Of a stretch of DNA of 24,904 bases, positions 1 to 24,904 are shown piece after piece (position 1 is the first letter of the stretch; each line of letters opens with the position of its first letter). Under the pieces are notes generated by a model. That model did no database searches. It was not told the origin of the DNA and saw only the letters and a list, made by a program, of their open reading frames with translations. Position numbers and translations under genes: made by a program. The DNA lies in assembly GCA_001804315.1 (NCBI GenBank), contig MHFT01000010.1:1-24904 (forward strand), in the 5' to 3' direction. The DNA comes from Omnitrophica bacterium RIFCSPLOWO2_12_FULL_50_11. GTDB lineage: Bacteria; Omnitrophota; Omnitrophia; Omnitrophales; Danuiimicrobiaceae.

Positions 1-2249
1 AGTTCCATCTTTTTCTCTTTCATTCGGTCGGTCACCTCGGCGAACTCAATCTGGATGATTTTTTCCAGATCCTCCCGGGTCAGCTGGTGGAAAACGATCA
101 TGTCATCAACGCGGTTCAAAAACTCAGGCCGAAATGTCTTCTTCGCTTCGTCCACAAATTTTGTTTTCATACCGTCGTACGTCTCTTGCTCCGACTTCGC
201 CTTAAAGCCGAGATCCCCGTGGCGCTTCCAAAGGTCGACCCCGATATTGGACGTCATAATTAAAACCGTGTTCCGGAAATCCACCCGACGACCAAAGGAG
301 TCCGTCAAACGGCCGTCTTCCATCACCTGGAGCAGAATGTTAAAGACATCTGGATGTGCTTTTTCCACTTCATCCATAAGCACAACCGAATAAGGCCGCC
401 GCCTCACCTTCTCGGTCAACTGACCTCCTTCCTCATACCCCACATAGCCGGGAGGCGCTCCCACAAGACGGGAAACATTAAATTTCTCACTGTATTCGGA
501 CATGTCAATTTGAACCATCGCATCCGGATCACCGAACATGAACTCCGCAAGCGCACGCGCCAGAAGTGTTTTTCCCACACCGGTCGGCCCCATGAAGATG
601 AAATTACCAATGGGGCGCCTCGGATTCCGAAGACCCGACCGCGAACGACGAACCGCATGCGCAATCGCTTTAATCGCTTCGTCTTGACCAATTACCTTCT
701 TGTGGAGCTCCTCTTCCATTCGGAGCAGCCGAGCCGTTTCCTTTTCCTCCAGACGTTGGAGCGGAACCCCGGTCATCTTTGAAACAATGTAGGCTATCTC
801 TTCTTCGCCCACCGAAACTTCGATCTCAGATTTGGATTCCTTCCAGCTTTTTTTAATTCTGTTGAGCTCCTCTTTGGCTTTGCGCTCTTCATCGCGCAGT
901 TTGGCTGCTTTTTCGAAGTCCTGCGCCTTAATCGCTGCCTCCTTCTCCATCTTGACCTCTTCAATCCGCGCCTCATGTTTCTTTAAATCTTTCGGCAGCC
1001 GGGTAACGGAGAGCCGCGCGCGGGATCCTGCTTCGTCAATTAAGTCAATCGCTTTGTCCGGCAAAAATCTGCCGCTAATGTATCGATCCGACATTTTGGC
1101 AGCTGCTTCCAAAGCCTCGTCTGTCAATTTCACCCGGTGGTGGGCCTCATACCGGTCCCGTAACCCTTTCAGAATCTCGACCGTTTCGTCGACCGTAGGT
1201 GGATCCACATTAATCGTCTGAAATCGTCGCGCGAGCGCGGCATCTTTTTCAATGTACTTTCGATATTCGTCGAGCGTCGTGGCACCAATGCATTGGATCT
1301 CACCGCGCGACAGCGCTGGCTTTAAGATGTTCGACGCGTCAATGGCACCCTCTGCCCCACCCGCCCCGACGAGTGTGTGAAGCTCGTCAATAAAAATGAT
1401 CACGTTTTCAGCGCGGCGAATTTCGTCCATGACGCCTTTAATTCGCTCTTCAAACTGGCCGCGGTACTTGGTCCCCGCCACCATGAGTGCTAAGTCGAGA
1501 ACGACAATCCGCTTGTCCAGTAAAACTTCGGGCACGTCATTGGCAACGATCCGCTGAGCTAAGCCTTCTACAATTGCTGTTTTGCCGACGCCTGCTTCTC
1601 CTAACAAGACCGGATTATTTTTCGTTCGCCGCGCAAGAATCTGAATGACGCGTTCAATTTCATCGAGACGGTTCACCACCGTATCCAATTTACCCGCCCG
1701 CGCGAGAGAAGATAAATCTCGTCCAAAGGCGTCCAAGGCAGGCGTTTTTGTCTTCGTTCCTTTCGCAGTGCCTGGACCGGATGGAAAACCGCCTCCCTCG
1801 TGCGAAGGAGCCGATGAACCCAAAAGTTTAATCACTTCGGAACGCACTTTGTTCAAGTCCAAGCCGACATTCATGAGCACATGACTTGCCACACCTTCTC
1901 CCTCCTTGATGAGACCGAGGAGCAAGTGTTCGGTTCCAATGTAGTTGTGACCCAGTCTTCTTGCTTCATCCATGGCAAGTTCAATCACCTTCTTCGCCTT
2001 GGGTGTAAACGGGATGTCCCCAGAAACAATGGTGCTGGGACCAAATTGCACCAATTTCTCGACCTCAAGACGAATCGTGTCGAGCGAAAGCCCTAAATTT
2101 TGCAATACCGCTGCGGCCACACTTTCTCCTTCTTTAATTAAACCGAGTAAGATATGTTCCGTCCCAATGTAATCGTGATTAAAACGCTTCGCTTCTTCTT
2201 TTGCGAGAATAATGACTTTTCGTGCACGTTCTGTAAAACGGTCAAACAT
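1..2249 (-). CDS. clpC: ATP-dependent Clp protease ATP-binding subunit ClpC (Clp_N repeats, two AAA+ modules, UVR-like linker); 3' end runs off the window
   Basis: Minus-strand translation from ATG at 2249..2247 gives [46 protein letters not shown]... with Walker A GEAGVGKT and [17 protein letters not shown] lies 5 nt upstream. No stop codon before position 1. Confidence 0.95.
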
Positions 2250-2275
2250 TTGTCCCTCCCGACATCCGTTTCATC

Positions 2276-2413
2276 GATTAAACTGACCCCTCGGGGAGTT
2301 TTTTTCTCCTTCCTGAGGGGTCATCCTGAGCGAAGCGAAGGATCTTGCGAGATCCTTCGGCCCTTCGGGCCTCAGGATGACGGGTCGGGAAACTCCCGAC
2401 CCGTCAATTAAAC
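2276..2413. repeat. Hairpin-rich interspersed element R1 (MITE/REP-like). Terminal inverted repeats GATTAAACTGACCCCTCGGGGAGTTT / GGGAAACTCCCGACCCGTCAATTAAAC; inverted core GTCATCCTGAG...GAAGGATCTTGCGAGATCCTTC...CTCAGGATGAC
   Basis: Nested inverted repeats read directly from the sequence. It fills nearly the whole mcsB-clpC spacer and its right TIR overlaps the mcsB stop. Related copies sit at 3488, 8645 and 22383. Confidence 0.7.
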
Positions 2414-3481
2414 TAACTCCACGTCCTTCAACCGTGTCCGCAGCAATTCAGCTCGCTTGTAGTCTCGTTCCGCCGTTTTCAAAGTTACCGAACTTAACTT
2501 CTGCAGATGGGCGGGTTGCATGTACAAGAACAGTGCATTTAAATTTTTCTTACTCAAATTCTTAATAAATCCAACATCCACCCCCAACCGCATCAAAGAC
2601 AACAACCCAAGCGTTTCAGCGCTCGACATGAGCCGCGCAGATTTAAGGGCTCCGACGGCGCGCCAGATTTGATCTTCCAGTTTTGCCCGGCGCTTCTCTA
2701 CAAGATGGCTCCTTGCTTCCTTTTCATGTTCGATCACTTGCCGCATGACGCGGTCCAAGCCGTCGACAATTTCCTCTTCGGCTTGGCCGAGTGTCATCTG
2801 ATTTGAAAACTGAAAAAAATTACCGCTTGCCTGCGTTCCCTCCCCAAAAAAACCACGCGCCGTCAAGTTAAGTTTCGAGAGCGCCTGCAAAATTTTGTTC
2901 ACTTGTTTCGTCATCATCAACCCGGCCAGATGCACCATACACGAAGCACGAAGTCCTGTGCCCACATTGGTCGGACACGCCGTCAAATACCCAAGACTCT
3001 CGTGAAACGAATAGGAAAGCCTCTTGTCAAGAGCAGAATCCACTTTGTCAACGAGGCGCCATGCCTCAATTAAATTCAAACCCGATTGAAGCACTTGAAC
3101 CCGCAAATGGTCTTCTTCGAGCACCATGATGCTTATAACTTCATTGCGGCTTACGGCCAACCCCCGTTCGCCTTGATCGGCCGCATGCTCTCGGCTGATC
3201 AAGTGGCGCTCGAGCAAAAATTGCATGTCCAAATCTTTCAGGTTCTTGTAATCAAAAAAATATGAGTCCTTGAGCATGGGCAGGCTGACAACCGCTTTTT
3301 CTACCTCGTCAAGCAGTTGTCGTTGCCGAGCTTCCTCCAACCTTTCCGAAAACGCGTATCCGCTCAGATTTCGGGCGAGCCGGATCCGAGAACTCAGCAC
3401 AATATCATTTTCCGGTCCGGTTCCTCGTAGCCATTCACAGGTTGACGTTAAAAGTTCATTCAGTTCTTTAGTTGGTTCCAT
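2408..3481 (-). CDS. mcsB: Protein arginine kinase McsB (phosphagen/guanidino kinase family)
   Basis: Phosphagen-kinase signature CPTNVGTGLRAS. Lies between mcsA and clpC as in Firmicutes. ATG at 3481; a TTG two codons upstream at 3487 is the alternative start. Confidence 0.88.
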   Translation of the reverse strand: MEPTKELNELLTSTCEWLRGTGPENDIVLSSRIRLARNLSGYAFSERLEEARQRQLLDEVEKAVVSLPMLKDSYFFDYKNLKDLDMQFLLERHLISREHAADQGERGLAVSRNEVISIMVLEEDHLRVQVLQSGLNLIEAWRLVDKVDSALDKRLSYSFHESLGYLTACPTNVGTGLRASCMVHLAGLMMTKQVNKILQALSKLNLTARGFFGEGTQASGNFFQFSNQMTLGQAEEEIVDGLDRVMRQVIEHEKEARSHLVEKRRAKLEDQIWRAVGALKSARLMSSAETLGLLSLMRLGVDVGFIKNLSKKNLNALFLYMQPAHLQKLSSVTLKTAERDYKRAELLRTRLKDVELV

Positions 3482-3487
3482 AATCAA

Positions 3488-3653
3488 GCGTCATTCTGAG
3501 GCAGCATACCAGGCCCTTGCCGAAGTCGCCAAAAGGCATCGGCGACCCGCCAGCACTTTGTGGCGGGAATCCCGACTGAGATCCTTCGCGGCACTTCGCG
3601 TTGGTTTGCTTTCCGCTCAGGATGACGAGACGACGAAAAACGTCGACTCGTCA
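3488..3653. repeat. Interspersed hairpin element R2, a variant of R1: GCGTCATTCTGAG ... GAGATCCTTCGCGGCACTTCGCG ... CGCTCAGGATGAC plus a terminal hairpin GACGAGACGACGAAAAACGTCGACTCGTC
   Basis: Shares the GTCAT(T/C)CTGAG / CTCAGGATGAC inverted core and the GAGATCCTTCG motif with R1, R3 and R4. It fills the mcsA-mcsB spacer and its last hairpin overlaps the mcsA stop codon. Confidence 0.6.
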
Positions 3654-4166
3654 CTTTTGTTTTTTATCCGACTTCTTCACTCTTTCTTCCAGCTGATGGA
3701 TCCGGTCCCGGATCTGAGCGGCCTCTTCAAACGTTTCAGCTGCGATGCATTTTTTCAAGCGCTCGTGGAGGTCTCGCAATTCAACGGACCATTTCATTTC
3801 ACCTGTCGCTTTTGCGGGTACCTTCCCGACATGGCGTAGCTCACGCTGAACCCGTTTCAGGAGCGGTGTGAGCACCCGCTCAAAAAACCGGTAGCAATCC
3901 GCACAGCCCAAACGTCCCGTTCTTCCAAAGTCCTCATACGACATGCTACAAGTTTTACAGGTGAGCTTTTCTCCTGCTTCGTCGCGACCGGTCACGCCGA
4001 TATCAGACAGACTCGCCAAAAGTTTATTGAAATCAAAATGGGTCTTAAAATCGGAGCCTTTTTGCTCCGCACAACTTTCGCACAAATGGACTTCCACCAT
4101 CTGATTGTTCATAATTTCCGTCAAATGAATCGTGGCCTCGTTCTGTCCACACGCATTGCAAATCAT
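3651..4166 (-). CDS. mcsA: McsA, activator of protein arginine kinase (N-terminal CxxC zinc fingers plus UVR-like motif)
   Basis: MICNACGQNEATIHLTEI...CESCAEQKG...CKTCSMSYEDF...LGCADCY cysteine pairs, and a C-terminal UVR-like helix (FEEAAQIRDRIHQLE). It sits immediately upstream of mcsB. Confidence 0.82.
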   Translation of the reverse strand: MICNACGQNEATIHLTEIMNNQMVEVHLCESCAEQKGSDFKTHFDFNKLLASLSDIGVTGRDEAGEKLTCKTCSMSYEDFGRTGRLGCADCYRFFERVLTPLLKRVQRELRHVGKVPAKATGEMKWSVELRDLHERLKKCIAAETFEEAAQIRDRIHQLEERVKKSDKKQK

Positions 4167-8644: not shown

Positions 8645-8770
8645 AGCGCGTCATTCTGAGACGGCGATACAGGACAAAGTCGGAGATCCCTGAACGAGAT
8701 CCTTCAGTCGGCCTACGGCCTCCTTCAGGATGAGCCATCGGACTCTCCTAAAAGGCCCCCGATGGCTCAT
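8645..8770. repeat. Interspersed hairpin element R3: GCGTCATTCTGAG...GGAGATCC...GAGATCCTTCAG...GGCCTACGGCC...CTTCAGGATGAG plus a 13-bp-stem terminal hairpin GATGAGCCATCGG/CCGATGGCTCATC
   Basis: Same core motifs as R1, R2 and R4. It sits in the lysS upstream region. Confidence 0.6.
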
Positions 8771-8927
8771 CTTACTACGTGATGTGGACAGTGTCAATGA
8801 ACCTGAGTGCTTACGACTCTGCTTAAATGATGGCGTGACGCCAAGTTGCAGCAAGTCCGTGATAAGCAAGCCTAAACTCAATTTCAGACTCAATTTCTGC
8901 GTGACAAAGCCGATGAGCATTGGTAGA

Positions 8928-9753: not shown

Positions 9754-12180
9754 TCAGGCCAAGCGTTCGAAAAACTTCGTTTCTAGTTCCTCGAGGCTTC
9801 TGAGAACTCCTGCGTAAGCGCGCCCGATGGCTTCCTCAAAACTTTTCCCCTTCGCCAGATACAAGATGAAACTGCGGAAACGACTTGCCCCGTACGTTTC
9901 AATCAGATACCGGACGAAAGCCTGCGATTCGCCGTAGTAAACGTTCGCTGCACCTCGAGTTTGCTGTTTGGGATCGACAATCGTGAGCAATTTGAGCGGG
10001 AGGAGCTTTCCTTGTGCCGCTGCCAGTTTGACGGCACGATTCAAGTCCTCTCGTTCCTCATCTTCCTGAGCAAGTGCGAAACCCTCGTGCAGCCACGTGG
10101 GCACGTTCCTATGTTCGCCGGTCAGCTCGTAAAGCACCAGATGCGCCACCTCGTGCGGAAGCGTCGAACTGAAAAAATGCCGCGATCCCAGGTACGTTGT
10201 GATCAACTTTTTTCCGTAATCGGCGTCACCTGCTGCCCAACTCGGTGCGCCACGTTTCTGTTGAAACATCTCCTGGTTCTCAAAAATAAAAATCCGAACG
10301 CGGCCGTCCTCCTGCCAACCTCGTTTCGGACCGTCATCATCCAATCGTTTCAAGATGCGGCCAAGATTTTCTTCGGCGTGCACCAAAACCTTCTGAGAAA
10401 GATCGAAATCTCTGGTCTTCAGGTAAACATTAAAGTGATCTCCCTTAAGCTCCACCCACTCATCTTCCCGTAACGGTTCCTCGTGTTCAGGTTTGATGTG
10501 CTCAAGAACACCGGAGTGCACAAGTAGGGACGGATCGGTCTCCTCCAAATCACGGTGGTGAAGCCTTGCGTCATCTTGAGAAAAGCACGGACAACTGAAC
10601 ACAAAGAGGGCGAAAAATAAAGACGCAAGTTGCCTTCCTCTCGTACGAGCAGAAACAATGGCAAAGGATACAATGAGAACGAACAAGCAAAAAAGAGGAA
10701 ACAAATGCCCACCCTGCTGGTACACCGTCCTCGCCCTTGGAAGCAGCACAGTACGCACGAGCCCGCCGGCGACAAATGTGTCATGCCTATGGGTGTCTTC
10801 AACACGATCGACGACCTCGCCTGTAAAACTCACAAAAGCAGAAACGCCGGTGTTCGCAGCGCGGACAACGGGCACCCCATTTTCAATGGCTCTAAAAATC
10901 GATGCTTGAAGATGTTGGTACGCTGCCGCACTCTTTGAAAACCAAGCGTCGTTGGTCAACACCACGAGAAACTGTGCTCCTCGTTCGACCGCCCGCCGCG
11001 CAAGCGACGGAAAAGTGTCCTCGAAGCAAATGAGCGGCGAAAAGCGCTTCGAATTTTCTAACACAAATACGCTCACATCTTCACCCGCCCGGTAATCCCC
11101 CACGCCGAGCGAATCCGCGAGGCGCTCCAAACCAAACATACCGAAAAACGGCCGCCACGGCACATATTCACCAAACGGAACCAAGCGGACTTTGTCGTAG
11201 CGCGCTTCGAGCCCGGATCCACGTTCCACCAGAAAAACGCTGTTGTAAGATCCTCCTAAAACATCCAAATAAGGACTTCCCAAAACCATCGGAACGTTGA
11301 GCTCTTTTTGAAATTTCAATATTTCCTCACGTTTCGGATCCAAATTAAAGTAACCTGGAAACGCAGCCTCGGGCCAAAGAATTAGCTCGGGCTTGTCATG
11401 TCCCACAAACCGCGTGAGGGCAAGGTGCGTTTCGAGAATCTCCGCTTTCCGTCCTGGATCCCATTTCACGTCCTGCGCAATATTTCCTTGAATCACCGCA
11501 AGTCGAATCTCATCTCCACGGACTGTTGGCTCGTTTCCACGACCAAGGAAAAAAGAACTCGCCAGGATGACAACGAGCGCACCAGTACCAACGGTACCAG
11601 GTACAGAAGGGACAGGTTCACCGAACCTGTCCCTTCTGTACCTGGTACCGAGAAACTGCACCACAAAAAAAATCCCAACATTGACAAACATGACGAGCCA
11701 CGAAACACCGAACGCCCCCACAAAAGCTGCGATCCGTGCAATGCCAAGGTTGGATGTCTGGCTGTACGCCAGTAAATTCCAGCCGAAACCCCAAACGGGA
11801 ATCTCGGTCCGCACCCACTCGAGAACAGCCCACGCCGATGGAATCAGAAAAAGAAAGGCGAAGCGCTGCTTCGATTTCCATACCGAACAAAACACAACGC
11901 CAAAGAGGCCAAAATAAAACGCGTACAAAAAAGCAACAAACACCCAGCCAAAGTACGTGACGTGACGAAGCCACTCCACAGAGGCAAAGAAAAAGAGGAA
12001 ACCCGTCAAGTAGAAGAAACTGAACGCATCGCGCACACGCTCAAGCCGCGCACTCAGACAGAAGATGGGTACAAAAGCAATCCAAGCGAGCCACGAAAAT
12101 GAGAATTTTGGAAAGGAAAGAATAAGGAGCAGAGCGGCGGTCAGCGAACAAACAGTGCCGTGGTACGCGTTTAGCGTCAC
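9754..12180 (-). CDS. lnt: Apolipoprotein N-acyltransferase (Lnt, CN-hydrolase) fused to an extra TM helix and a C-terminal ~290-aa HExxH zinc-peptidase-like (peptidase MA-like) domain
   Basis: N-terminal half: multi-TM region plus nitrilase-fold motifs IRLAVIQGNI, WPEAAFPGYF, SPLICFEDTFP, VLTNDAWFSKSAAAYQH, RAANTGVSAFV. Then a TM/signal-like LFFALFVFSCPCF. Then a soluble domain with HEVAHLVLYELTG ... WLHEGFALAQ (HExxH + EGxA). Proposed start is GTG at 12180 with SD GGGGGGGAGGAA. The ORF-track extension to 12336 overlaps secA and is unlikely. Confidence 0.8.
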   Translation of the reverse strand: MTLNAYHGTVCSLTAALLLILSFPKFSFSWLAWIAFVPIFCLSARLERVRDAFSFFYLTGFLFFFASVEWLRHVTYFGWVFVAFLYAFYFGLFGVVFCSVWKSKQRFAFLFLIPSAWAVLEWVRTEIPVWGFGWNLLAYSQTSNLGIARIAAFVGAFGVSWLVMFVNVGIFFVVQFLGTRYRRDRFGEPVPSVPGTVGTGALVVILASSFFLGRGNEPTVRGDEIRLAVIQGNIAQDVKWDPGRKAEILETHLALTRFVGHDKPELILWPEAAFPGYFNLDPKREEILKFQKELNVPMVLGSPYLDVLGGSYNSVFLVERGSGLEARYDKVRLVPFGEYVPWRPFFGMFGLERLADSLGVGDYRAGEDVSVFVLENSKRFSPLICFEDTFPSLARRAVERGAQFLVVLTNDAWFSKSAAAYQHLQASIFRAIENGVPVVRAANTGVSAFVSFTGEVVDRVEDTHRHDTFVAGGLVRTVLLPRARTVYQQGGHLFPLFCLFVLIVSFAIVSARTRGRQLASLFFALFVFSCPCFSQDDARLHHRDLEETDPSLLVHSGVLEHIKPEHEEPLREDEWVELKGDHFNVYLKTRDFDLSQKVLVHAEENLGRILKRLDDDGPKRGWQEDGRVRIFIFENQEMFQQKRGAPSWAAGDADYGKKLITTYLGSRHFFSSTLPHEVAHLVLYELTGEHRNVPTWLHEGFALAQEDEEREDLNRAVKLAAAQGKLLPLKLLTIVDPKQQTRGAANVYYGESQAFVRYLIETYGASRFRSFILYLAKGKSFEEAIGRAYAGVLRSLEELETKFFERLA
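11594..11649. repeat. Perfect 56-bp palindrome (27-bp arms GGTACCAGGTACAGAAGGGACAGGTTC / GAACCTGTCCCTTCTGTACCTGGTACC, 3-nt centre) lying in-frame inside the lnt CDS
   Basis: Read directly from the sequence. It encodes the polar peptide GTRYRRDRFGEPVPSVPGT between two hydrophobic Lnt segments. Confidence 0.9.
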
Positions 12181-12259
12181 TTCCTCCCCCCCTTGTTCGC
12201 CACAACGCGTTGGCGGAATCCGTCCCAAAACGCTTTGTGGCGAACAAGGGGGGGAGGAA
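12181..12259 (-). promoter_or_regulatory. Hairpin with a 25-bp perfect stem (TTCCTCCCCCCCTTGTTCGCCACAA ... TTGTGGCGAACAAGGGGGGGAGGAA, 29-nt loop) in the secA-lnt spacer; on the mRNA its 3' arm contains the lnt SD and abuts the GTG start
   Basis: Inverted repeat verified base by base. Minus-strand transcript reads 5'-UUCCUCCCCCCC...GGGGGGGAGGAA-GUG. Confidence 0.6.
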
Positions 12260-12293
12260 AAATCGCTAAACAGATACGTGCCGTGAAACACTT

Positions 12294-16357: not shown

Positions 16358-16972
16358 TCATCCGGCCTTATTGCGGGAAAGGGTGACGCGCTCGTAGAAC
16401 CGAGAGCTAATCTGACGATCAAGCTGGCGGACCGACCACCCGCCGCGCAGGGCTTCCACTTCGTAGAACTTGCGTGCGTGAGCAGTCCTTACCGTAAGAA
16501 GCCGGACATAATGAGACCAGGAAAGTGGAAAAATGGCCGCAAGGGCTTCCACATCCAATTTACTCAATCGTGTTGAGGATTTCTCAACAGACACTCGAGA
16601 TTTGCTAGACACCGTCTGGCAGATTCGAGATTTGCGAGACAGTGTCTGGCCAATTTGAGCAGGCGGGTAGGACAGGTAAAATTCACGCATCTGCTGAAGA
16701 TTCTGACGTGAAAAGCCTCGGCCGAATTTTTTGGTTAAATCTCGCGACAGATTTTCAAGAATTGCTTCCCCATATTCAGCCCGCTTTCGGCCTTTTTGTT
16801 CGTATTCGACAACGCGCCGACTGATCTCCCAGTACGTAGCCGTCAATATGGCATTTACAGAGCCGGCAACTTGGTGCCTGGCTTCTTCCAGAAGCCGCTG
16901 AATTCCGCCGAGAAACCGCTGGTATCCCTGCAAAACAGATTCAGATTTTAACCGTTTCATAATGCGTGGCAT
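16358..16972 (-). pseudogene. Degenerate YhcG/DUF1016-family (PDDEXK nuclease) gene; the N-terminal domain is retained and the nuclease core is deleted
   Basis: The YhcG N-terminal domain pattern (RLLEEARHQVAGSVNAILTATYWEISRRVVEYEQ...YGEAILENLSRDLTKKFGRGFSRQNLQQMREFYLSYP ... LSWSHYVRLL...GWSVRQLDRQI) stops after ...FYER. Only about 260 bp remain before prfB. A possible C-terminal remnant (ELKRTRQQLE) sits just downstream in another frame. Likely start is M50 at 16972 (SD GGGAGG, 10-nt spacer). Confidence 0.55.
16596..16655. repeat. Two tandem copies of a 30-nt unit (CGAGATTTGCTAGACACCGTCTGGCAGATT / CGAGATTTGCGAGACAGTGTCTGGCCAATT) inside the DUF1016 remnant
   Basis: Direct repeat, 26/30 identical. 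It encodes a repeated QT(L/V)S(R/S)KSR(I/V) peptide. An adjacent hairpin TGTTGAGgatttCTCAACA lies at 16571-16589. Confidence 0.7.
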
Positions 16973-17237
16973 TTTAACATACCTCCCTTTGAGAATCCTG
17001 ATTTTTTGGTCTAGGATCATCGAGGATTCAGATAGAACTTTGAGGGAGGCGGGTCGCTTGGCAGGCCGAAGAACTCTTTCCTCCTGCACCGCCTTTAAAA
17101 AGCGGCAATATGAATCCAAGAAGAATTCGAGGATCTGTGCATCGATTCAGGGATACAATACTTTCGGCCCTCAGATCGTTGGCTCGCTCGGGAAAAGATA
17201 CCTCAGGGGAACAAACTCCGTAGCCGATAATAATCTT

Positions 17238-17825
17238 ATGAAGAAAATATGGTCATGCGGTTTGCTGATACTGTTAGTGGGATGTTCGGTTCAAAATCCA
17301 AAGGACACCGAACGGGCTATGGCAGTCGCAAGCGAGTTTATAACACTGCTTTATCAATCCAATGACAATGTAAGTCGAGCATTCGCTTTAACATCAAACA
17401 ATTATCAAGTGGTTTCAAATGAAGGAATGACCCGAACGCTGCGGGATGTCGCAGGCGAAATTGTCGGAAATTATCAAAGACACGATCAAGGTACCGATGT
17501 GACTCGTTTGCTCGCACCCGATGCACCTTCCAATGGAAGAGTTATACGGTTTAACGTTGCTTATGAAAACGACCCTGAAGGCCAGCTATTGGTTACCATG
17601 ATAAAAGAAGGCGGTGTGTGGAAGGTCATGGGCTTCAATATCAACTCTCCAAAAATTGCTGGCCTTCAGGGTGACCCTGAAGGCCAGCTATTGGTTACCA
17701 TGATAAAAGAAGGCGGTGTGTGGAAGGTCATGGGCTTCAATATCAACTCTCCAAAAATTGCTGAGAGCCAAGCACGAGGAACGCTGCAACAACCTCCTGG
17801 TGGCAACCCGACGACGGCAACGTAA
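17238..17825 (+). CDS. Lipoprotein (signal peptide MKKIWSCGLLILLVGC with lipobox) with an NTF2/DUF4878-like fold and an internal perfect tandem duplication
   Basis: ATG at 17238 is preceded by a -10-like GATAAT 6 nt upstream. It has a lipobox LVGC. The ORF-track 5' extension to 16962 lacks coding signal. Confidence 0.65.
   Translation: MKKIWSCGLLILLVGCSVQNPKDTERAMAVASEFITLLYQSNDNVSRAFALTSNNYQVVSNEGMTRTLRDVAGEIVGNYQRHDQGTDVTRLLAPDAPSNGRVIRFNVAYENDPEGQLLVTMIKEGGVWKVMGFNINSPKIAGLQGDPEGQLLVTMIKEGGVWKVMGFNINSPKIAESQARGTLQQPPGGNPTTAT
17571..17763 (+). repeat. In-frame tandem duplication, period 102 bp (34 aa), two units 100% identical over 91 nt
   Basis: gaccctgaaggccagctattggttaccatgataaaagaaggcggtgtgtggaaggtcatgggcttcaatatcaactctccaaaaattgctg occurs at 17571-17661 and again at 17673-17763. 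It encodes DPEGQLLVTMIKEGGVWKVMGFNINSPKIA twice. Confidence 0.95.
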
Positions 17826-18142
17826 TCCAGAGAAACCGCGAAAGGAATCCTTTGGTCAATAAAGTTGCCTTAACTTTCAGGAACCTGACCCCAAACTGTC
17901 CGTTCCATTTACCATAACCCAATTATCGGAAATAAGTTTTCCCTGTAAATATTGGTCTCGAATGAACGGTATTTTTTAAAAAAACAGAAAAGATGCTGAC
18001 CTGGTTACGCAATCAGATGAAACAAGGGACTTATCAAAATTCAGCCGTTCTTCCTGATTTATCCGAAGAGGAGATACCGCAAAGAGGAGTAAGTCACTCT
18101 CGGCAATTTGAAGAACAACATCAAACGAAGGAGGATTTTCAA

Positions 18143-19006
18143 ATGATCAATTATATCTCGGGACTTGTCTTTACGATTTTGTTCGTCATTGGCGGAGCCA
18201 TTGCGTGGAACATTTACCTGGCTGATCCGACGCTCGCCGTTTGGTTTTCAATTGTTTGGTTCGTCGGAGATGTCATTATCGCACAAGCCATTCAACTGGC
18301 AGCGCAGTGGGAAAAAGGGGTTATCTTCCGGCTTGGCAAGTTCTCAAGCGTTAAAGGCCCAGGTATTTTCTTGATTATCCCCATCATCGATCAAGTCAAA
18401 ATGGTGGACCTCAGAATCCTCGCCATGGATATTCCGGCTCAACAAGTGATCACCAGGGACAACGTCCCCGTAAAAATAAACGGCGTCCTCTTTTTCAAAG
18501 TTCAAAACGCAGCCGACGCGATCATCAAAGTTCAAGATTATCGCTACGCCATCGGCCAATATGCGCAAACCTCGCTTCGTGATGTGATCGGACAGATGAC
18601 CCTCGATCAATTATTGGTAGAACGCGAAGAAATCGGAAAAAGCATTGAATCCAATGTGGAGAAAGACACACGTGATTGGGGACTGGAAGTAACGGGCATT
18701 CGAATGCAAGACGTCGACATGCCTGAAGAGCTTAAAAAAATGATGTCACGCCAAGCGTCAGCGGAACGCGAAAAACGAGCCACCATTACAAAAGCCGAAG
18801 GCGACAGAGAGGCCGCGATCAATCTTGCGGTGGCCGCGAGAACCATGACAGAGAGCCCCGGTGCGATGCAGTTGAGAACCCTTCAAACTGTTGACGGCCT
18901 TGGTCCTACCGCATCCAATACGGTCGTTCTTGCCGTTCCCGTAAACATCATGGAAGCAGTTGATCAGTTAACTCAAGCCTTAAAAACTAAAAACCAGAAA
19001 TCTTAA
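18143..19006 (+). CDS. SPFH/band-7 (stomatin/flotillin-like) membrane protein
   Basis: N-terminal TM, then an SPFH core (IFRLGKF...IPIIDQV...DVPVKINGVLFFKVQNA...) and a coiled-coil tail. ATG at 18143 has a strong SD AAGGAGGA 8 nt upstream. The ORF-track extension to 17993 is unlikely. Confidence 0.85.
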   Translation: MINYISGLVFTILFVIGGAIAWNIYLADPTLAVWFSIVWFVGDVIIAQAIQLAAQWEKGVIFRLGKFSSVKGPGIFLIIPIIDQVKMVDLRILAMDIPAQQVITRDNVPVKINGVLFFKVQNAADAIIKVQDYRYAIGQYAQTSLRDVIGQMTLDQLLVEREEIGKSIESNVEKDTRDWGLEVTGIRMQDVDMPEELKKMMSRQASAEREKRATITKAEGDREAAINLAVAARTMTESPGAMQLRTLQTVDGLGPTASNTVVLAVPVNIMEAVDQLTQALKTKNQKS

Positions 19007-19035
19007 AACTTGGACTGGGTAACCAAGGGTAAGTC

Positions 19036-19425
19036 GTGAAAAAAACAATTCTAGGGGCGATAATTGCTCTTTCAACTGCTTTGGCGATTGAATTGCCTCT
19101 CATGTTCAATTTAGAATTCACGCCTTTGCGCATCGTTAGAAATGTCGTCATGTATATTCCTCAATTTTTTGCCACCATGATTCATCTTTGGACGTTTTTC
19201 GGCATCAGTCCGAAGGCGTTTCACACGCTTACCCCAATCATGCAAACCCCATTTAACCTTTTCTTCTGGACTCTGATAGGAGGTGCAATAGGAAAGTGGA
19301 TGACAACGAAGCGTAACGCTTTGGTTTTCTTTTTAGTGGCTCTTCCGGTATGCTTTCTTGCAATGCTCATCTTTACAGTGGTTGTAAGTTTTGTTGTTAT
19401 TTATTCAGTGAAAGGCCGAGTCTAA
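19036..19425 (+). CDS. Small polytopic membrane protein (about 4 TM), unknown function
   Basis: GTG start. Strongly hydrophobic throughout. It lies 30 bp downstream of the SPFH gene and is AT-rich like its neighbours. Confidence 0.55.
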   Translation: MKKTILGAIIALSTALAIELPLMFNLEFTPLRIVRNVVMYIPQFFATMIHLWTFFGISPKAFHTLTPIMQTPFNLFFWTLIGGAIGKWMTTKRNALVFFLVALPVCFLAMLIFTVVVSFVVIYSVKGRV

Positions 19426-19578
19426 CCTTAATCGTCGATCGACATTCGCTCATTTGAATTTCTTCCAAGCGCTTCTTGCTATCCTATTGTGGATCGTGAT
19501 ATGGATTGGTTCCTACCTGGCTTTGATCGGTTCACTCCTCTTGGTTGCTAAATCCTTTGCTTGAGTAGGGCAAAAACA

Positions 19579-20097
19579 ATGGATGAATTCTTGACAAGCA
19601 ATTGGCAATTTGAATCTGAACTTTTGACTGAAAAACCAAGACCTGTATCCTATCGATTGTTTTTTTACAATAATTTCGAGGACTACTTCCTGCTTGGTGC
19701 GACCGGTTTCATGAGTTTGCTTTTAGGTTGGTTTGTCGTCACACATGTAAGGCTTGATTCCTTTCTGATCTTTCTGTTATTTGTCCTGCCTTTTCTCTAC
19801 TTGATCTTTTCTATAAGAAAGGAATTATCGATTCATAAGTATTTAACAGCACAGGGAGACCCGATTTGTGGTAAGGTCGAAAAGTATAGTTTATTTCGTT
19901 GGAGTGCCAGAAAGCATCGCCTACAACCCTTTGTCAGCTATGAATATCAAGGCAGGCATTATTTTGAGAAGGTGGTCGGTACCACCGCGTGGTGGTCAGG
20001 CGTCACAAAAGGACGCAATATCACCCTTTTAGTGGATCCTAATAATCCTCACATTTGTGCCATCTATGTTTCCATGCGCTATAAAGCCAAAAAGTGA
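19579..20097 (+). CDS. Membrane protein, DUF3592-like
   Basis: Two TM segments, then a beta-rich domain ending ...GRNITLLVDPNNPHICAIY, resembling DUF3592 C-termini. The start is ATG 19579 or TTG 19561. Confidence 0.55.
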   Translation: MDEFLTSNWQFESELLTEKPRPVSYRLFFYNNFEDYFLLGATGFMSLLLGWFVVTHVRLDSFLIFLLFVLPFLYLIFSIRKELSIHKYLTAQGDPICGKVEKYSLFRWSARKHRLQPFVSYEYQGRHYFEKVVGTTAWWSGVTKGRNITLLVDPNNPHICAIYVSMRYKAKK

Positions 20098-20876
20098 CCT
20101 CCGCAAAAACGATCACGAAATTCGTTTTGGCGTCAAGTTTGGGCTTGTGGCTAATCAGCTTTTTTCAAAAAGACCGTTTTCCGGATAAATCGGCCATTTT
20201 GCCAGAACTTTCTCGCCCACCCATTCAAACTGAAACTGATGCCCAGCCGTTTGAAATTCAGCGAAGAGGTGTGACCTATCGAGTCACGCCGATGCACGAC
20301 TATGAATTATATGGCATGGTGGTTTCTGAGAATGACTTCCGAGATTTTTGGGAAAAAGTACACGAGGATCTGAAAGATCATATCAACGTAAAGGATTTGT
20401 GCGTCATTTGGGGTCCGAATGTTGAATCTGGAATCTATCAGAAACTAGAATTCAGCTCAGGCGAATGGACTTGTTATTATGAGTGGAAGACGGGATCTGA
20501 CCGCGAATCTTGGGCTCAGTTTCAACCCAACGCGCTTTCCAACAACCATTTGCTTTCAGACAAAAGTGAGATTCTGGCGAAGACCGCACTAGCGAAACGA
20601 GGAGACCAAATTCATTTTAAAGGTCATTTAGTTAAGTACAGTTCAAATTTCATGAAGGCACCAAGGATTTCAAGTACCGTTAGAGAAGACAACGGTTGCG
20701 AAGTCGTCTATTTGACCCAGCTTGAAATACTCAAGAAGGCGAATCGTTTCTGGAGGTCTCTATTTTCATTGTCTGGTCGCGTGGCGTTGGTTTGTATCAT
20801 TCTGTTTATGAGCCACTTTCTTATCGAAATTGGCAAGGTCGTAAAGCACGAAGGGCGGAAGCAAAATGGGGACTGA
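20094..20876 (+). CDS. Hypothetical membrane-anchored protein (N- and C-terminal TM segments)
   Basis: GTG start overlapping the upstream stop (GTGA). No family recognised. Same AT-rich composition as the island. Confidence 0.5.
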   Translation: MTSAKTITKFVLASSLGLWLISFFQKDRFPDKSAILPELSRPPIQTETDAQPFEIQRRGVTYRVTPMHDYELYGMVVSENDFRDFWEKVHEDLKDHINVKDLCVIWGPNVESGIYQKLEFSSGEWTCYYEWKTGSDRESWAQFQPNALSNNHLLSDKSEILAKTALAKRGDQIHFKGHLVKYSSNFMKAPRISSTVREDNGCEVVYLTQLEILKKANRFWRSLFSLSGRVALVCIILFMSHFLIEIGKVVKHEGRKQNGD

Positions 20877-20880
20877 TAGG

Positions 20881-20916
20881 CAATTTTCGGAGCGCTCCGA
20901 AAATTGTGTTATTTTG
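20881..20916 (+). terminator. Candidate intrinsic terminator of the island operon: perfect 26-bp palindrome CAATTTTCGGAGC/GCTCCGAAAATTG followed by TGTTATTTTG
   Basis: It begins 5 nt after the stop at 20876. Stem plus T-rich tract. Confidence 0.5.
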
Positions 20917-21098
20917 ATACACCCTCAAAGCATCGTAAGGGTAAGTCTTATCATAAGATAGATCGTGAGCGAGCTTCAGAATGACCTTTTCTCCGTAGGG
21001 TGCGCGCACAGCCCTGAAAAAGGAAAAGGGAAGATGTCATGCCACCTTTTTGTGCCGTTTCGGTACCGCTGGTGAAGGGACAATCAAAGAATCAATGG

Positions 21099-22364: not shown

Positions 22365-22382
22365 AGTTCTTCCCATAAATAT

Positions 22383-22471
22383 CTGAGGGCCGAAGGCCAG
22401 AAGGATCTCTGAGATCCTTCGCTCCGCTCAGGATGACCCCTCGGGGGAGTTTTTCAGTCTTCCCGAGGAGT
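22383..22471. repeat. Interspersed hairpin element R4: a truncated copy of R1 in inverted orientation (…GAAGGATCTCTGAGATCCTTCGCTCCGCTCAGGATGACCCCTCGGGGGAGTTTTTCAGTCTTCCCGAGGAGTC)
   Basis: Its reverse complement aligns with the R1 core and left TIR. It starts 19 nt after the ATPase stop. Confidence 0.65.
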
Positions 22472-22571
22472 CAACTCAAATATTAAAACTAAGAACCAAA
22501 AGCCTTCAACACAGAAAGGTGCCACGTGCCTTCGTTTTTAGATGATACACAAAAGCCTGAATCCGTTTCGA

Positions 22572-24014
22572 CTAAGCTCGACGCAAAAACTCAAGGACAC
22601 GTGAGGCTGAAGGCCGCGTCATCCCTTTCAAGCGGGCAAGGACTTCAAGCGGCGTATTTCGGAGCTCTTCGAGCGAGGCAAAGGACTGAAGCAAGATTTT
22701 CTTCCGTTTTTCACCGATGCCCTCGATGCGGTCAAGAAGAGAACGCGTGAGCTGCTTTTCTTTAAGCCGCCGGTGGTACGTAATCGCAAATCGGTGCGCT
22801 TCATCACGGATCTTCTGAAGAAGCCTGAGGGCTGCCGAGTTCGGCTCGAGCGCAACGGGCACATTCGATTTCGGCGAATGAACCAGTTCGAACCGCTTGG
22901 CAAGCGAAATGACCTCCACGTCCGAACAATCCTCCGATTTGAGCACCTCGTGCGCTCGATTTAAATGCCCGCGGCCGCCGTCAATCATGATTAAGTCCGG
23001 AAGCGCACTTTCTCTGCCTTCCTTCACACCCACAATCATCCGCCGAACCGCTTCGCAAATCATCGCATAGTCATCGATGCCGGTAACCCCTTTAATTTTG
23101 TATCGGCGGTACTCAAGTTTATGGGTAAGCTCACGGAAGAAACATACTTTCGAGGCCACCGCTTCGTCTCCCTGAATATTGGAAACGTCGAAACAAATAA
23201 TTTTTTCCGGCAGTCGATCAAGCTTCAACGCTTGTTTCAATTCCAAGGTCCCGCGCAGGCCGATTCCGCCTTCTGGGCGTCTCAGATCAAATCGCTTCTT
23301 TCGAAACCATCCAAGCGCTTCAATCTGCTCTTTAAAAAATTGAGCATCTTCAAAGCGGTATTCCAATGCAGCCTGTTTCATCTTCTCCGCAATGTAATCG
23401 ATTAAGCTCTGCCGCCCGCCGCTTAAAAACTCTTTCATGTGCTTGACGAGCGAATCGTATTCGGGTTTCACTGCCGGTTTAATGCACGGCGCGATGCATT
23501 GGCCGATGTGATAATAAAGACAGGCCCGTTTCGGAAGCGTCCGGCATTTCCGAATCGGAAAGATGCTGTTGAACACACGCACAACTTCGCGAAGGAGCTT
23601 CGCGTCTGTGTAAGGACCGTAATAAGCAGCTTTCCTATCTTTTCGATTGCGCGTGACGAGCAAGCGTGGAAACTCGTCCCCCGTAAGCTTGAGCAGTGGG
23701 TAACTCTTGTCATCTCGCAGCTGCGTGTTGTAGCGCGGATGGTGTTTCCGCACAAGCTGGGCCTCAAGCAAAAGTGCATCCATTTCCGTCTGAGTTTCAA
23801 TCGTCTCGACATCAACGATTCGCCCGAGCAGGACTTCGATTTTTGGTGAGACACCCCGATTCTTGAGGTACGACCGGACGCGCTTCCTTAAATTGCCAGC
23901 TTTTCCAATGTAGAGGAGCCCTCCTCCTTTGCCCTTAAACAGATAAACACCGGATGTTTGCGGAAGCGCTTCAATTTTTTCCCGAAGACGATCACGAGCG
24001 TCAGAATTTGACAT
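22572..24014 (-). CDS. uvrC: Excinuclease ABC subunit C (GIY-YIG, UVR, RNase H-like, C-terminal HhH)
   Basis: GVYLFKGKGGGLLYIGKAGNLRKRVRSY (GIY-YIG), UVR helix ...RFEDAQFFKEQIEAL, and C-terminal IEGIGEKRKKILLQSFASLEELRNTPLEVLARLKGMTRPSASRVLEFL. SD GAGGAA lies 5 nt upstream. Confidence 0.9.
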   Translation of the reverse strand: MSNSDARDRLREKIEALPQTSGVYLFKGKGGGLLYIGKAGNLRKRVRSYLKNRGVSPKIEVLLGRIVDVETIETQTEMDALLLEAQLVRKHHPRYNTQLRDDKSYPLLKLTGDEFPRLLVTRNRKDRKAAYYGPYTDAKLLREVVRVFNSIFPIRKCRTLPKRACLYYHIGQCIAPCIKPAVKPEYDSLVKHMKEFLSGGRQSLIDYIAEKMKQAALEYRFEDAQFFKEQIEALGWFRKKRFDLRRPEGGIGLRGTLELKQALKLDRLPEKIICFDVSNIQGDEAVASKVCFFRELTHKLEYRRYKIKGVTGIDDYAMICEAVRRMIVGVKEGRESALPDLIMIDGGRGHLNRAHEVLKSEDCSDVEVISLAKRFELVHSPKSNVPVALEPNSAALRLLQKIRDEAHRFAITYHRRLKEKQLTRSLLDRIEGIGEKRKKILLQSFASLEELRNTPLEVLARLKGMTRPSASRVLEFLRRA

Positions 24015-24404: not shown

Positions 24405-24437
24405 CCAAAACTGTAGGGGCGCCCCTTGTGGGCGCCC
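24405..24437 (-). terminator. GC hairpin (GGGCGCCC-CTTGT-GGGCGCCC) between convergent rpsT and holA. The U-tract is on the minus strand, so this is a likely holA terminator and possibly bidirectional.
   Basis: 8-bp all-GC stem at 24417-24437. The minus-strand flank is UACAGUUUUGG. Confidence 0.45.
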
Positions 24438-24473
24438 GAGATGACAGCGAACGGACGCGCACAAGGCCCGCCC

Positions 24474-24904
24474 CTACGATTGCCCAACAGTGGCGAGGAA
24501 TGTTTCCATCGCAATCGTAGGCTCGCAGGCGCCGGTTTTGACCTTCCAATCAGTTTCCCACAGTTCGTTGAGAAGCTGCTCGAGTGTTTCGAGGTCAAAC
24601 TGTCGCACTTGATTGAGGAACACTTGAAGGCGAAAAGGCGGAATCCTGACCGCCCGAGCGACGTCGTCGCGGCTTCCCCCACGCGCCAAAATTTTCTTTG
24701 CCTGCCAAATCCGCTTAAGCTGCCAATGGATGAGCCCAATGGTACTGACCACATCACCGCTTAAATCACAGAAATAATGCAAAATCTTGATCGCTTCGCT
24801 CGTATCCTTCCGGGCAAGTGCATCAGCCAAATCAAACGGTTCATACCGGAGCCATTCGATCGCGAGTTTTTCGACCGCTCTTTCATCAATGGTCTCACCG
24901 TCCG
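24474..24904 (-). CDS. holA: DNA polymerase III delta subunit, C-terminal part (5' end beyond the window)
   Basis: The C-terminal region ...LKRIWQAKKILARGGSRDDVARAVRIPPFRLQVFLNQVRQFDLETLEQLLNELWETDWKVKTG is typical of HolA. It is convergent with rpsT, a common neighbourhood. Confidence 0.7.
   Translation of the reverse strand, partial: DGETIDERAVEKLAIEWLRYEPFDLADALARKDTSEAIKILHYFCDLSGDVVSTIGLIHWQLKRIWQAKKILARGGSRDDVARAVRIPPFRLQVFLNQVRQFDLETLEQLLNELWETDWKVKTGACEPTIAMETFLATVGQS

Follow-up and report, generated by a model that had tools for sequence, protein, structure and literature searches.

What occupies the two spacers of the mcsA-mcsB-clpC stress operon on contig MHFT01000010.1, and what does it do there? 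The 24,904-nt stretch analysed here (the window; all coordinates refer to its forward strand, position 1 being the first letter) carries these genes with a hairpin-rich element in each intergenic spacer, R1 between mcsB and clpC and R2 between mcsA and mcsB. A sequence-only reading had called the elements MITE/REP-like, that is, akin to miniature inverted-repeat transposable elements (MITEs) or repetitive extragenic palindromes (REPs), and had counted four copies. We will argue that R1 and R2, together with two further copies, R3 and R4, are probably hairpin repeats of the NTS/SRM type, related to those of the Ssn nuclease system, and that they were inserted into intergenic DNA after the split from the sequenced relatives. 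The analysis shows the insertion relative to these relatives, the covariation of the arm hairpin, and an association between arms and Ssn-family genes across phyla.

The layout of the operon in the window is as follows.

5' part ending at 2250, minus strand, clpC
2408-3481, minus strand, mcsB
3651-4166, minus strand, mcsA-like gene with a UVR domain

The mcsB-clpC spacer measures 158 nt and is filled by R1, and the mcsA-mcsB spacer measures 169 nt and is filled by R2. The mcsA, mcsB and clpC products are full length (171, 357 and 816 residues, respectively), the same as in relatives. The gene order and the filled spacers given by the sequence-only reading are confirmed, while its Firmicute setting has to be corrected: the host belongs to the Omnitrophota, and the closest McsB homologues that carry a source name come from Candidatus Omnitrophica/Omnitrophota. 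The R1/R2 arrangement is found identically in five contigs from five samples, with identity of at least 99.9%, and this agreement excludes an assembly artefact for R1 and R2. The contigs that carry it derive from wastewater/anammox-type metagenomes; the samples containing the contig are ERZ4903185, ERZ4903125, ERZ28563641, ERZ27254754 and ERZ4903137.

A different junction is present on a contig from another sample (L006; logan SRR2090155_725574, positions 1-1183). There, mcsB, 99.5% identical at the DNA level, is joined to MazE-like genes and not to mcsA. The homology breaks off inside R2, and the left arm is related but different. This junction stems either from a rearrangement mediated by the repeat or from a chimera formed there during assembly.

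Two short motifs are strongly over-represented in the window. With at most one mismatch allowed, GTCATYCTGAG is matched 9 times (0.91 expected from shuffles) and GAGATCCTTCG 6 times (0.75 expected from shuffles), and the matches of both cluster at four sites.

2277-2413, R1, in the mcsB-clpC spacer
3488-3653, R2, in the mcsA-mcsB spacer
about 8650-8771, R3, decayed, between the divergent lysS and DUF5329 genes (motif matches and covariance model)
22383-22477, R4, between the convergent AAA_14/DUF4143 gene and uvrC-like gene (covariance model and alignment to R1)

A covariance model of the arm, the repeated hairpin unit described below, recognises five arms in the window, four of them clear and one decayed, and none in the 7.6 kb of host contig next to it. 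The host DNA examined, 32.5 kb in all (the 24.9-kb window and these 7.6 kb), thus contains four elements with five arms, every one of them intergenic. The motif counts relative to shuffles and the covariance model bear out the earlier description of R1 and R2 as occupants of both spacers and members of a four-copy family.

R1 is composed of the following parts.

2277-2283, left direct repeat ATTAAAC (GTTTAAT on the operon strand), read from the sequence
2285-2322, plus strand, module B, a GC-rich hairpin directly upstream of the plus-strand arm, assigned by folding
2320-2344, plus strand, arm GTC ATCCT GA GCGAAGC GA AGGAT C (covariance-model match at 2316-2348, plus strand, 43.1 bits, E 3e-9)
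2351-2381, minus strand, operon-strand arm GTC ATCCT GA GGCCCGAAGGGCC GA AGGAT C with a longer apical stem (covariance-model match at 2347-2385, minus strand, 30.4 bits, E 9e-6, supported by the arm fold)
2378-2406, minus strand, module C, a GC-rich hairpin directly upstream of the minus-strand arm, assigned by folding
2407-2413, right direct repeat ATTAAAC, containing the mcsB stop codon TAA (2408-2410)

R2 is built from related parts, one arm being decayed.

3490-3527, plus strand, decayed arm (GTCATTCTGAG...CGAAGTC) that has lost its lower stem, assigned by motif match
3528-3578, no strand assigned, internal nested hairpins, assigned by folding
3579-3626, minus strand, operon-strand arm with a long apical insertion (covariance-model match at 3576-3630, minus strand, 35.1 bits, E 5e-7)
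3623-3653, minus strand, hairpin upstream of the arm, containing the mcsA stop codon TGA (3651-3653)

The covariance model gives no significant match for the decayed arm at 3490-3527, which stops 8 nt short of the mcsB start codon. The segment 3528-3578 recurs at another locus of the same population, in a related copy on L006.

For R3, the model matches one minus-strand arm at 8694-8733 (17.3 bits, E 0.03), which starts with CTC instead of GTC and is adjoined by a hairpin at 8729-8771. A 50-residue gene called across R3 on the contig record (8586-8738, minus strand) is likely spurious. The parts of R4 are given below.

22377-22382 and 22478-22483, flanking direct repeat AAATAT
22383-22407, plus strand, 5'-truncated arm
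22412-22437, minus strand, intact arm (covariance-model match at 22409-22441, minus strand, 41.9 bits, E 7e-9)
22435-22472, hairpin resembling module B

Each forward arm in the host is directly preceded by a GC-rich hairpin of 27-40 nt, the 3' end of which supplies the GTC of the arm. In R1 it is module B that does so for the plus-strand arm, and hairpins related to it lie next to the arms of R4 and R3. When modules B and C were searched for elsewhere with two mismatches allowed, mostly noise was obtained outside the window.

The sequence-only reading had further stated that R1 overlaps the mcsB stop codon and that the terminal hairpin of R2 overlaps the mcsA stop codon. Both overlaps hold, the first lying within the flanking ATTAAAC of R1 and the second within the hairpin 3623-3653. 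The terminal inverted repeats (TIRs) that had been assigned to R1, on the other hand, do not stand up. They are only weakly complementary to each other, each being one half of its own hairpin (2285-2322 and 2378-2406), and the true flank of R1 is the 7-nt direct repeat.

We now turn to the relatives of the host. The comparison set consists of six syntenic relatives whose McsB is 74-80% identical to that of the host, and all of them retain the gene order ilvE-like, mcsA, mcsB, clpC. Their mcsA-mcsB junctions, as called, range from a 4-nt overlap to 29 nt, compared to 169 nt in the host. The 29-nt junction is that of L212, in which an upstream in-frame ATG would give 11 nt; in five of the six relatives the junction lies between a 4-nt overlap and a few nt. 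The mcsB-clpC junctions are 25-33 nt long with a ribosome-binding site of the GGAG type, compared to 158 nt in the host. If R1 is removed together with one copy of ATTAAAC, a spacer of 28 nt is left, like those of the relatives, with the clpC Shine-Dalgarno sequence kept. Since the junctions are compact in all six relatives, R1 and R2 are insertions in the host lineage. Arm pairs are detected by the covariance model at other positions in two of the relatives, L007 and L010. This search for empty sites, which had been proposed along with the repeat family, gives the same answer in six out of six relatives, all of which lack R1 and R2, and it supports a dispersed, inserted repeat family.

Comparison of the window copies with copies elsewhere shows that conservation does not extend over the whole element: what is conserved is an oriented arm of about 25 nt, with the consensus GTC, AT-nnn, GA, GC-GNA-GC, GA, n'n'n'-AT, C read in this order. 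As single-stranded DNA, the arm forms a stem of 5 bp and a 2x2 internal loop made up of two G/A mismatches, with a GCGNAGC mini-hairpin at its apex. GCGNAGC is a known mini-hairpin DNA motif (PMC13037366). The facing GA dinucleotides probably form tandem sheared G-A pairs. The apex is often exchanged for longer stems that covary, as in the second arm of R1 with its GCCC-GAA-GGGC. The arms mostly come as inverted pairs, 4-80 nt apart, which is why the elements resemble long palindromes.

The hairpin is supported by covariation in two sets of arms. In 392 arms that were gathered without requiring complementarity of the variable triplet of the stem, the triplet is complementary in 353, compared to a mean of 141 and a maximum of 162 after shuffling, and at least 11 Watson-Crick triplet types occur among the arms. 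In an alignment of 88 arms, 98.2% of the cells are paired and five of the seven pairs have double-sided changes, while slid controls of the same alignment give 17-53% paired cells. It is important to point out that the collecting pattern fixed GTCAT, GA, GA and AT, and that only the remaining columns count as evidence.

The arm is by no means confined to the host. A scan of species-representative genomes found the signature AGATCCTTCG-N(3-30)-CTCAGGATGAC, which comprises 21 bases, in at least 119 stretches, and these represent more than 15 phyla; about 8 would be expected by chance according to our own estimate. The phyla include Acidobacteriota, Chloroflexota, Bacillota, Bacteroidota, Patescibacteria, Planctomycetota, Pseudomonadota, Gemmatimonadota, Cyanobacteriota, Nitrospirota, Bdellovibrionota, Fibrobacterota, Omnitrophota and others, and cultured Hymenobacter and Mucilaginibacter isolates are among the sources. 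One would not expect REPs or MITEs of the ordinary species-specific kind to be conserved so broadly at the nucleotide level. A literature search for the motif string of the arm returned primer coincidences only.

Six-frame open reading frames (ORFs) that run over arms give recurring peptides, such as 'HPERSEGS', 'LRSLRMT' and 'RFAQDD' (ORF lists of L021, L052 and L087). Peptides of this kind, 'HPERSEGS' for instance, are likely to be spurious proteins in databases.

One gene type accompanies the arms. An ORF of about 95 residues with a GIY-YIG domain (Pfam PF01541, E 1e-16 to 1e-18) adjoins an arm in 5 of the 119 listed loci, and it lies between or abuts arms in all four loci whose positions were inspected. 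The reverse test, starting from 80 metagenomic homologues of the gene, finds an arm at most 200 nt away in 38 cases, and on both sides in 22. The density of arms is 2.6 per kb near the gene, compared to 0.12 per kb beyond 400 nt, and in the commonest layout the gene has a forward arm on its upstream side and an inverted one on its downstream side. One of the five loci, L122, belongs to an Omnitrophota metagenome-assembled genome. Over 90 residues, its protein shares 52% identity (E 2e-32) with a 94-residue N. gonorrhoeae ORF that is surrounded by 16 NTS-type hairpin repeats within 3.3 kb, nine of which match the published consensus exactly.

Several observations on this gene should be mentioned here. 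An assignment of the ORF between the arms as a four-helix-bundle protein of the 23S intervening-sequence (IVS) type was considered and rejected, the ORF being GIY-YIG. The label 'YhbQ/UPF0213-like' is approximate only, as the nearest solved structures are distant UPF0213 proteins (E 6e-9), and NCBIfam has no specific model for this protein of about 95 residues. On a Planktothrix agardhii plasmid (L211; NZ_LR882964, 17850-20113), an Ssn-like GIY-YIG gene has GA-type arms, that is, arms with the facing GA dinucleotides, on both sides. Its neighbours are an MmeI-type restriction-modification gene on one side and the DISARM gene drmA on the other, which is a defence-gene neighbourhood. Two 2.17-Mb N. 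gonorrhoeae records, NZ_CP119140.1 and NZ_CP119142.1, are labelled as plasmids in PLSDB and are evidently chromosomes; the mislabelling made the gonococcal comparison possible.

With the arm and its gene in hand, the MITE part of the original description can be weighed. Classical MITEs are gene-less derivatives of insertion sequences (ISs), moved by a DDE-type transposase through double-stranded TIRs, here of about 26 bp, with target-site duplication. The elements are indeed small, have no coding capacity and carry inverted arms of about 26 bp; the sites in relatives are empty, and R1 and R4 are bordered by AT-rich direct repeats of 7 and 6 nt, respectively. R2 and R3, however, have no duplication, and none was seen by eye in a handful of copies from other genomes. 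In R1 and R2 the arms are not located at the element ends, and every arm has an internal covarying hairpin, for which a double-stranded TIR has no need. The only gene type identified between or abutting arms is, moreover, the GIY-YIG gene and no known transposase, although other ORFs near arms were not systematically surveyed. We therefore regard this explanation as very unlikely. What remains of 'MITE/REP-like' is the dispersed, inserted repeat; in place of a MITE with the stated TIRs, there are inverted pairs of an NTS/SRM-type hairpin arm.

The system to which the gonococcal ORF leads has been characterized by Chenal et al. (2025, Nat Commun 16:2388; PMC11893778). In Neisseria the NTS repeat reads CGTCATTCCCGCGMAVGCGGGAATCYRG, and related repeats of other bacteria are named 'Ssn-related motifs' (SRMs). 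The repeats are intergenic, form hairpins and border ssnA, a single-domain GIY-YIG gene of 94 residues. SsnA binds the hairpin as single-stranded DNA only and cuts a few nt upstream of it; the GTC on the 5' side of the palindrome is required for cleavage and the C on the 3' side for binding, while RNA and double-stranded DNA are not substrates. In N. meningitidis, the system reduces transformation by DNA that bears NTS. The authors also point out the IS-like NTS-ssnA-NTS layout and the analogy with REPs and their REP-associated tyrosine transposases (RAYTs) (PMC11893778).

The arms described here share with NTS the oriented hairpin whose palindrome is preceded by GTC(A/T)(C/T) and followed by C, and the window arms also share the AT-closed stem and the apical GCG..AGC mini-hairpin. 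The GTC-AT...AT-C frame is kept in all four intact arms of the window, while the decayed R3 arm has CTC. Shared too are the intergenic position, often in inverted pairs, and, elsewhere, the arm-gene-arm layout around a GIY-YIG gene of about 94 residues. At the gonococcal ssnA locus, plus/minus NTS pairs lie about 78 nt apart and resemble the pairs here. The E value of 2e-32 between the L122 protein and the gonococcal one is far inside the homology criterion of E < 1e-10 used in the Ssn paper (PMC11893778). The differences are also clear. The stem of the window arms has a conserved 2x2 G/A loop, GA opposite GA, instead of a continuous GC-rich helix, an extra GC-rich hairpin precedes each forward arm, and the host phylum is Omnitrophota.

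A number of results weigh against this assignment. The published SRM search pattern, HGTCWYN(0-2)YYVSBRHN(0-5)WNVSBRGN(0-2)RNCYNB, has no match in the window (0.1 expected from shuffles), nor near any of the 80 related GIY-YIG genes, compared to 9 matches in the gonococcal ssnA control. It fails on the window arms because their stem has two G/A mismatches and not a continuous GC-rich helix; the arms are thus classified as a variant of the SRM kind, and not as members by the published operational definition. Neither the 24.9-kb window nor the 7.6 kb next to it contains an ssn gene. The minimal arm on its own has a predicted folding energy of −2.7 kcal/mol (z = −0.13), no stabler than shuffles, with nearest-neighbour parameters that treat the G/A positions as an internal loop. 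Finally, in the predicted single-stranded DNA fold of an inverted pair, the arms pair with each other and do not form a hairpin each; the same geometry is also present at the gonococcal ssnA locus.

Other families of hairpin repeats come close in one respect or another. The dRS3/intergenic mosaic elements of Neisseria are likewise mosaic intergenic blocks bounded by short inverted hairpin repeats (PMC11893778), but they belong to another sequence class and host, and the blocks are shorter here, the loop between the R1 arms being 4-6 nt. REPs and the bacterial interspersed mosaic elements (BIMEs) formed by them are dispersed extragenic palindromes that provide single-stranded DNA hairpins for a small nuclease whose gene they flank (Nunvar et al. 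2010, PMC2817692). That R1-R4 could be REP/BIME elements served by a RAYT, which is a Y1 transposase of the HUH class, is suggested by their intergenic hairpins, the mosaic of alternating orientations with its BIME-like architecture, and the analogy drawn by the Ssn authors (PMC11893778). The arms, however, begin with GTCAT and lack the REP signature GTAG, and the associated gene found is GIY-YIG and not Y1, with no search aimed at RAYT/Y1 having been made. This alternative appears highly improbable to us.

Taking the NTS/SRM assignment one step further, the GA-type arm GTC-ATYCT-GA-GCGNAGC-GA-AGRAT-C might constitute a large, bacteria-wide class of Ssn sites with a nuclease clade of its own, missed by the SRM pattern. 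We put this forward as a tentative proposal, more doubtful than the assignment of R1-R4 itself.

We also considered what the elements do to the operon. As RNA, the R1 spacer has a predicted folding energy of −83.8 kcal/mol (z = −6.1) and the R2 spacer one of −77.7 kcal/mol (z = −4.1); as single-stranded DNA, R1 gives −48.1 kcal/mol with z = −10 on either strand. Both spacers thus fold far better than shuffles, in agreement with the nested stem-loops that the sequence-only reading had seen, and the R1 fold includes an almost uninterrupted stem of about 22 bp. Such folds invite the explanation that the elements are RNA-level regulators of the operon, that is, processing sites for RNase III/E or stabilisers of 3' ends that tune the levels of McsA, McsB and ClpC. 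In an intact operon co-transcription is unavoidable, R1 reaches up to the mcsB stop codon while R2 extends over that of mcsA, and the stop/start coupling suggested by the mcsA-mcsB junctions of the relatives is lost in the host.

There are precedents for effects of this type. Both the REP elements of E. coli and the Correia elements of Neisseria act at the RNA level, on processing and stability. REPs can influence mRNA stability and the translation of the upstream gene, and the RNA stems of Correia elements are cut by RNase III, which is the type of effect that the earlier reading had suggested. Correia elements, which are MITEs, resemble the present ones as small inverted-repeat insertions co-transcribed within operons, but they have true TIRs, a TA duplication and no known link to Ssn.

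Against a regulatory origin stands the distribution of the elements. They are absent from all six relatives, copies also lie between divergent genes (R3) and between convergent genes (R4), and arms are found beside unrelated genes in more than 15 phyla. These findings speak against an RNA role as the reason why the elements exist. The conserved positions, moreover, are those on which a DNA nuclease without RNA binding depends (PMC11893778). Rfam 15 gives no match at the gathering score across the window, and only chance-level ones at E <= 10 in 2200-3720, and terminator- and promoter-like sites show no excess over shuffles within the elements. We consider the regulator explanation unlikely, and have good confidence in the view that the elements are a known kind of genomic repeat and not an operon-specific regulator. 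An effect on the operon at the RNA level is plausible as a secondary consequence, and for the operon itself the elements are probably tolerated selfish or host-domesticated DNA.

The following mechanism can be proposed for the NTS/SRM-type repeats. A small single-domain GIY-YIG nuclease of the Ssn family would be encoded elsewhere in the host genome. By analogy with SsnA, it would bind the folded arm only on single-stranded DNA and nick a few bases upstream of it, the single-stranded substrate arising in replication, repair or DNA uptake. The arm-gene-arm layout seen elsewhere, together with the short direct repeats of R1 and R4, suggests that the repeats spread by nuclease-dependent mobility. 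Within the operon, R1 and R2 would be co-transcribed and would fold in the mRNA into stems of at least about 22 bp. R2 would then have to abolish the coupling between mcsA and mcsB that is suggested by the compact junctions of the relatives. The mcsB start codon, 8 nt past R2, has no Shine-Dalgarno sequence, while that of clpC has been left intact by R1.

The window contains some further features, which are given here for completeness. The uvrC-like gene next to R4 is located as follows.

22572-24014, minus strand, uvrC-like gene

The segment 21085-21164, upstream of the AAA_14/DUF4143 gene, repeats the 3' end of the uvrC-like gene (22584-22663) with 86% identity. The AAA_14/DUF4143 gene and R4 together look like an insertion of about 1.4 kb at the end of uvrC that duplicated the terminus of the gene.

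Two 91-nt copies that are 100% identical (17571-17661 and 17673-17763) lie 102 nt, or 34 codons, apart inside the ORF 16962-17825 (plus strand), which has no Pfam match. They reflect either an in-frame tandem duplication of very recent date or an error of the assembly. The GC content is 0.41-0.47 across 17000-21000, compared to about 0.50-0.57 elsewhere; the genes there include those for proteins with a DUF1016 N-terminal domain and for Band 7 and DUF3592 proteins, and the region may be acquired DNA.

A perfect palindrome with 28-nt arms (11592-11650) is located inside lnt, between the LNT_N and CN_hydrolase domains, and despite it the host Lnt still aligns continuously with that of the relatives. 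Two other hairpins fall outside the arm family: one at 12169-12271, between lnt and secA, with 43-nt arms that are 88% complementary, and one at 24413-24477 with 26-nt arms, which starts with GTAG.

The finding assigns a puzzling and very widespread intergenic sequence to a published nuclease-repeat system, which it extends to the Omnitrophota, and it indicates that the published search pattern overlooks a major variant of the Ssn system. In this conserved and normally tightly packed stress operon, the pairs of filled and empty sites constitute a natural case for studying repeat insertion, and they also bear on how a structured insert of about 160 nt affects the expression of an operon. If the GA-type arms do form a class of Ssn sites with its own nuclease clade, R1 and R2, with their empty sites in relatives and with AT-rich duplications at R1 and R4, would be snapshots of active nuclease-dependent transposition, and the multiplication of NTS/SRM repeats would become directly testable.

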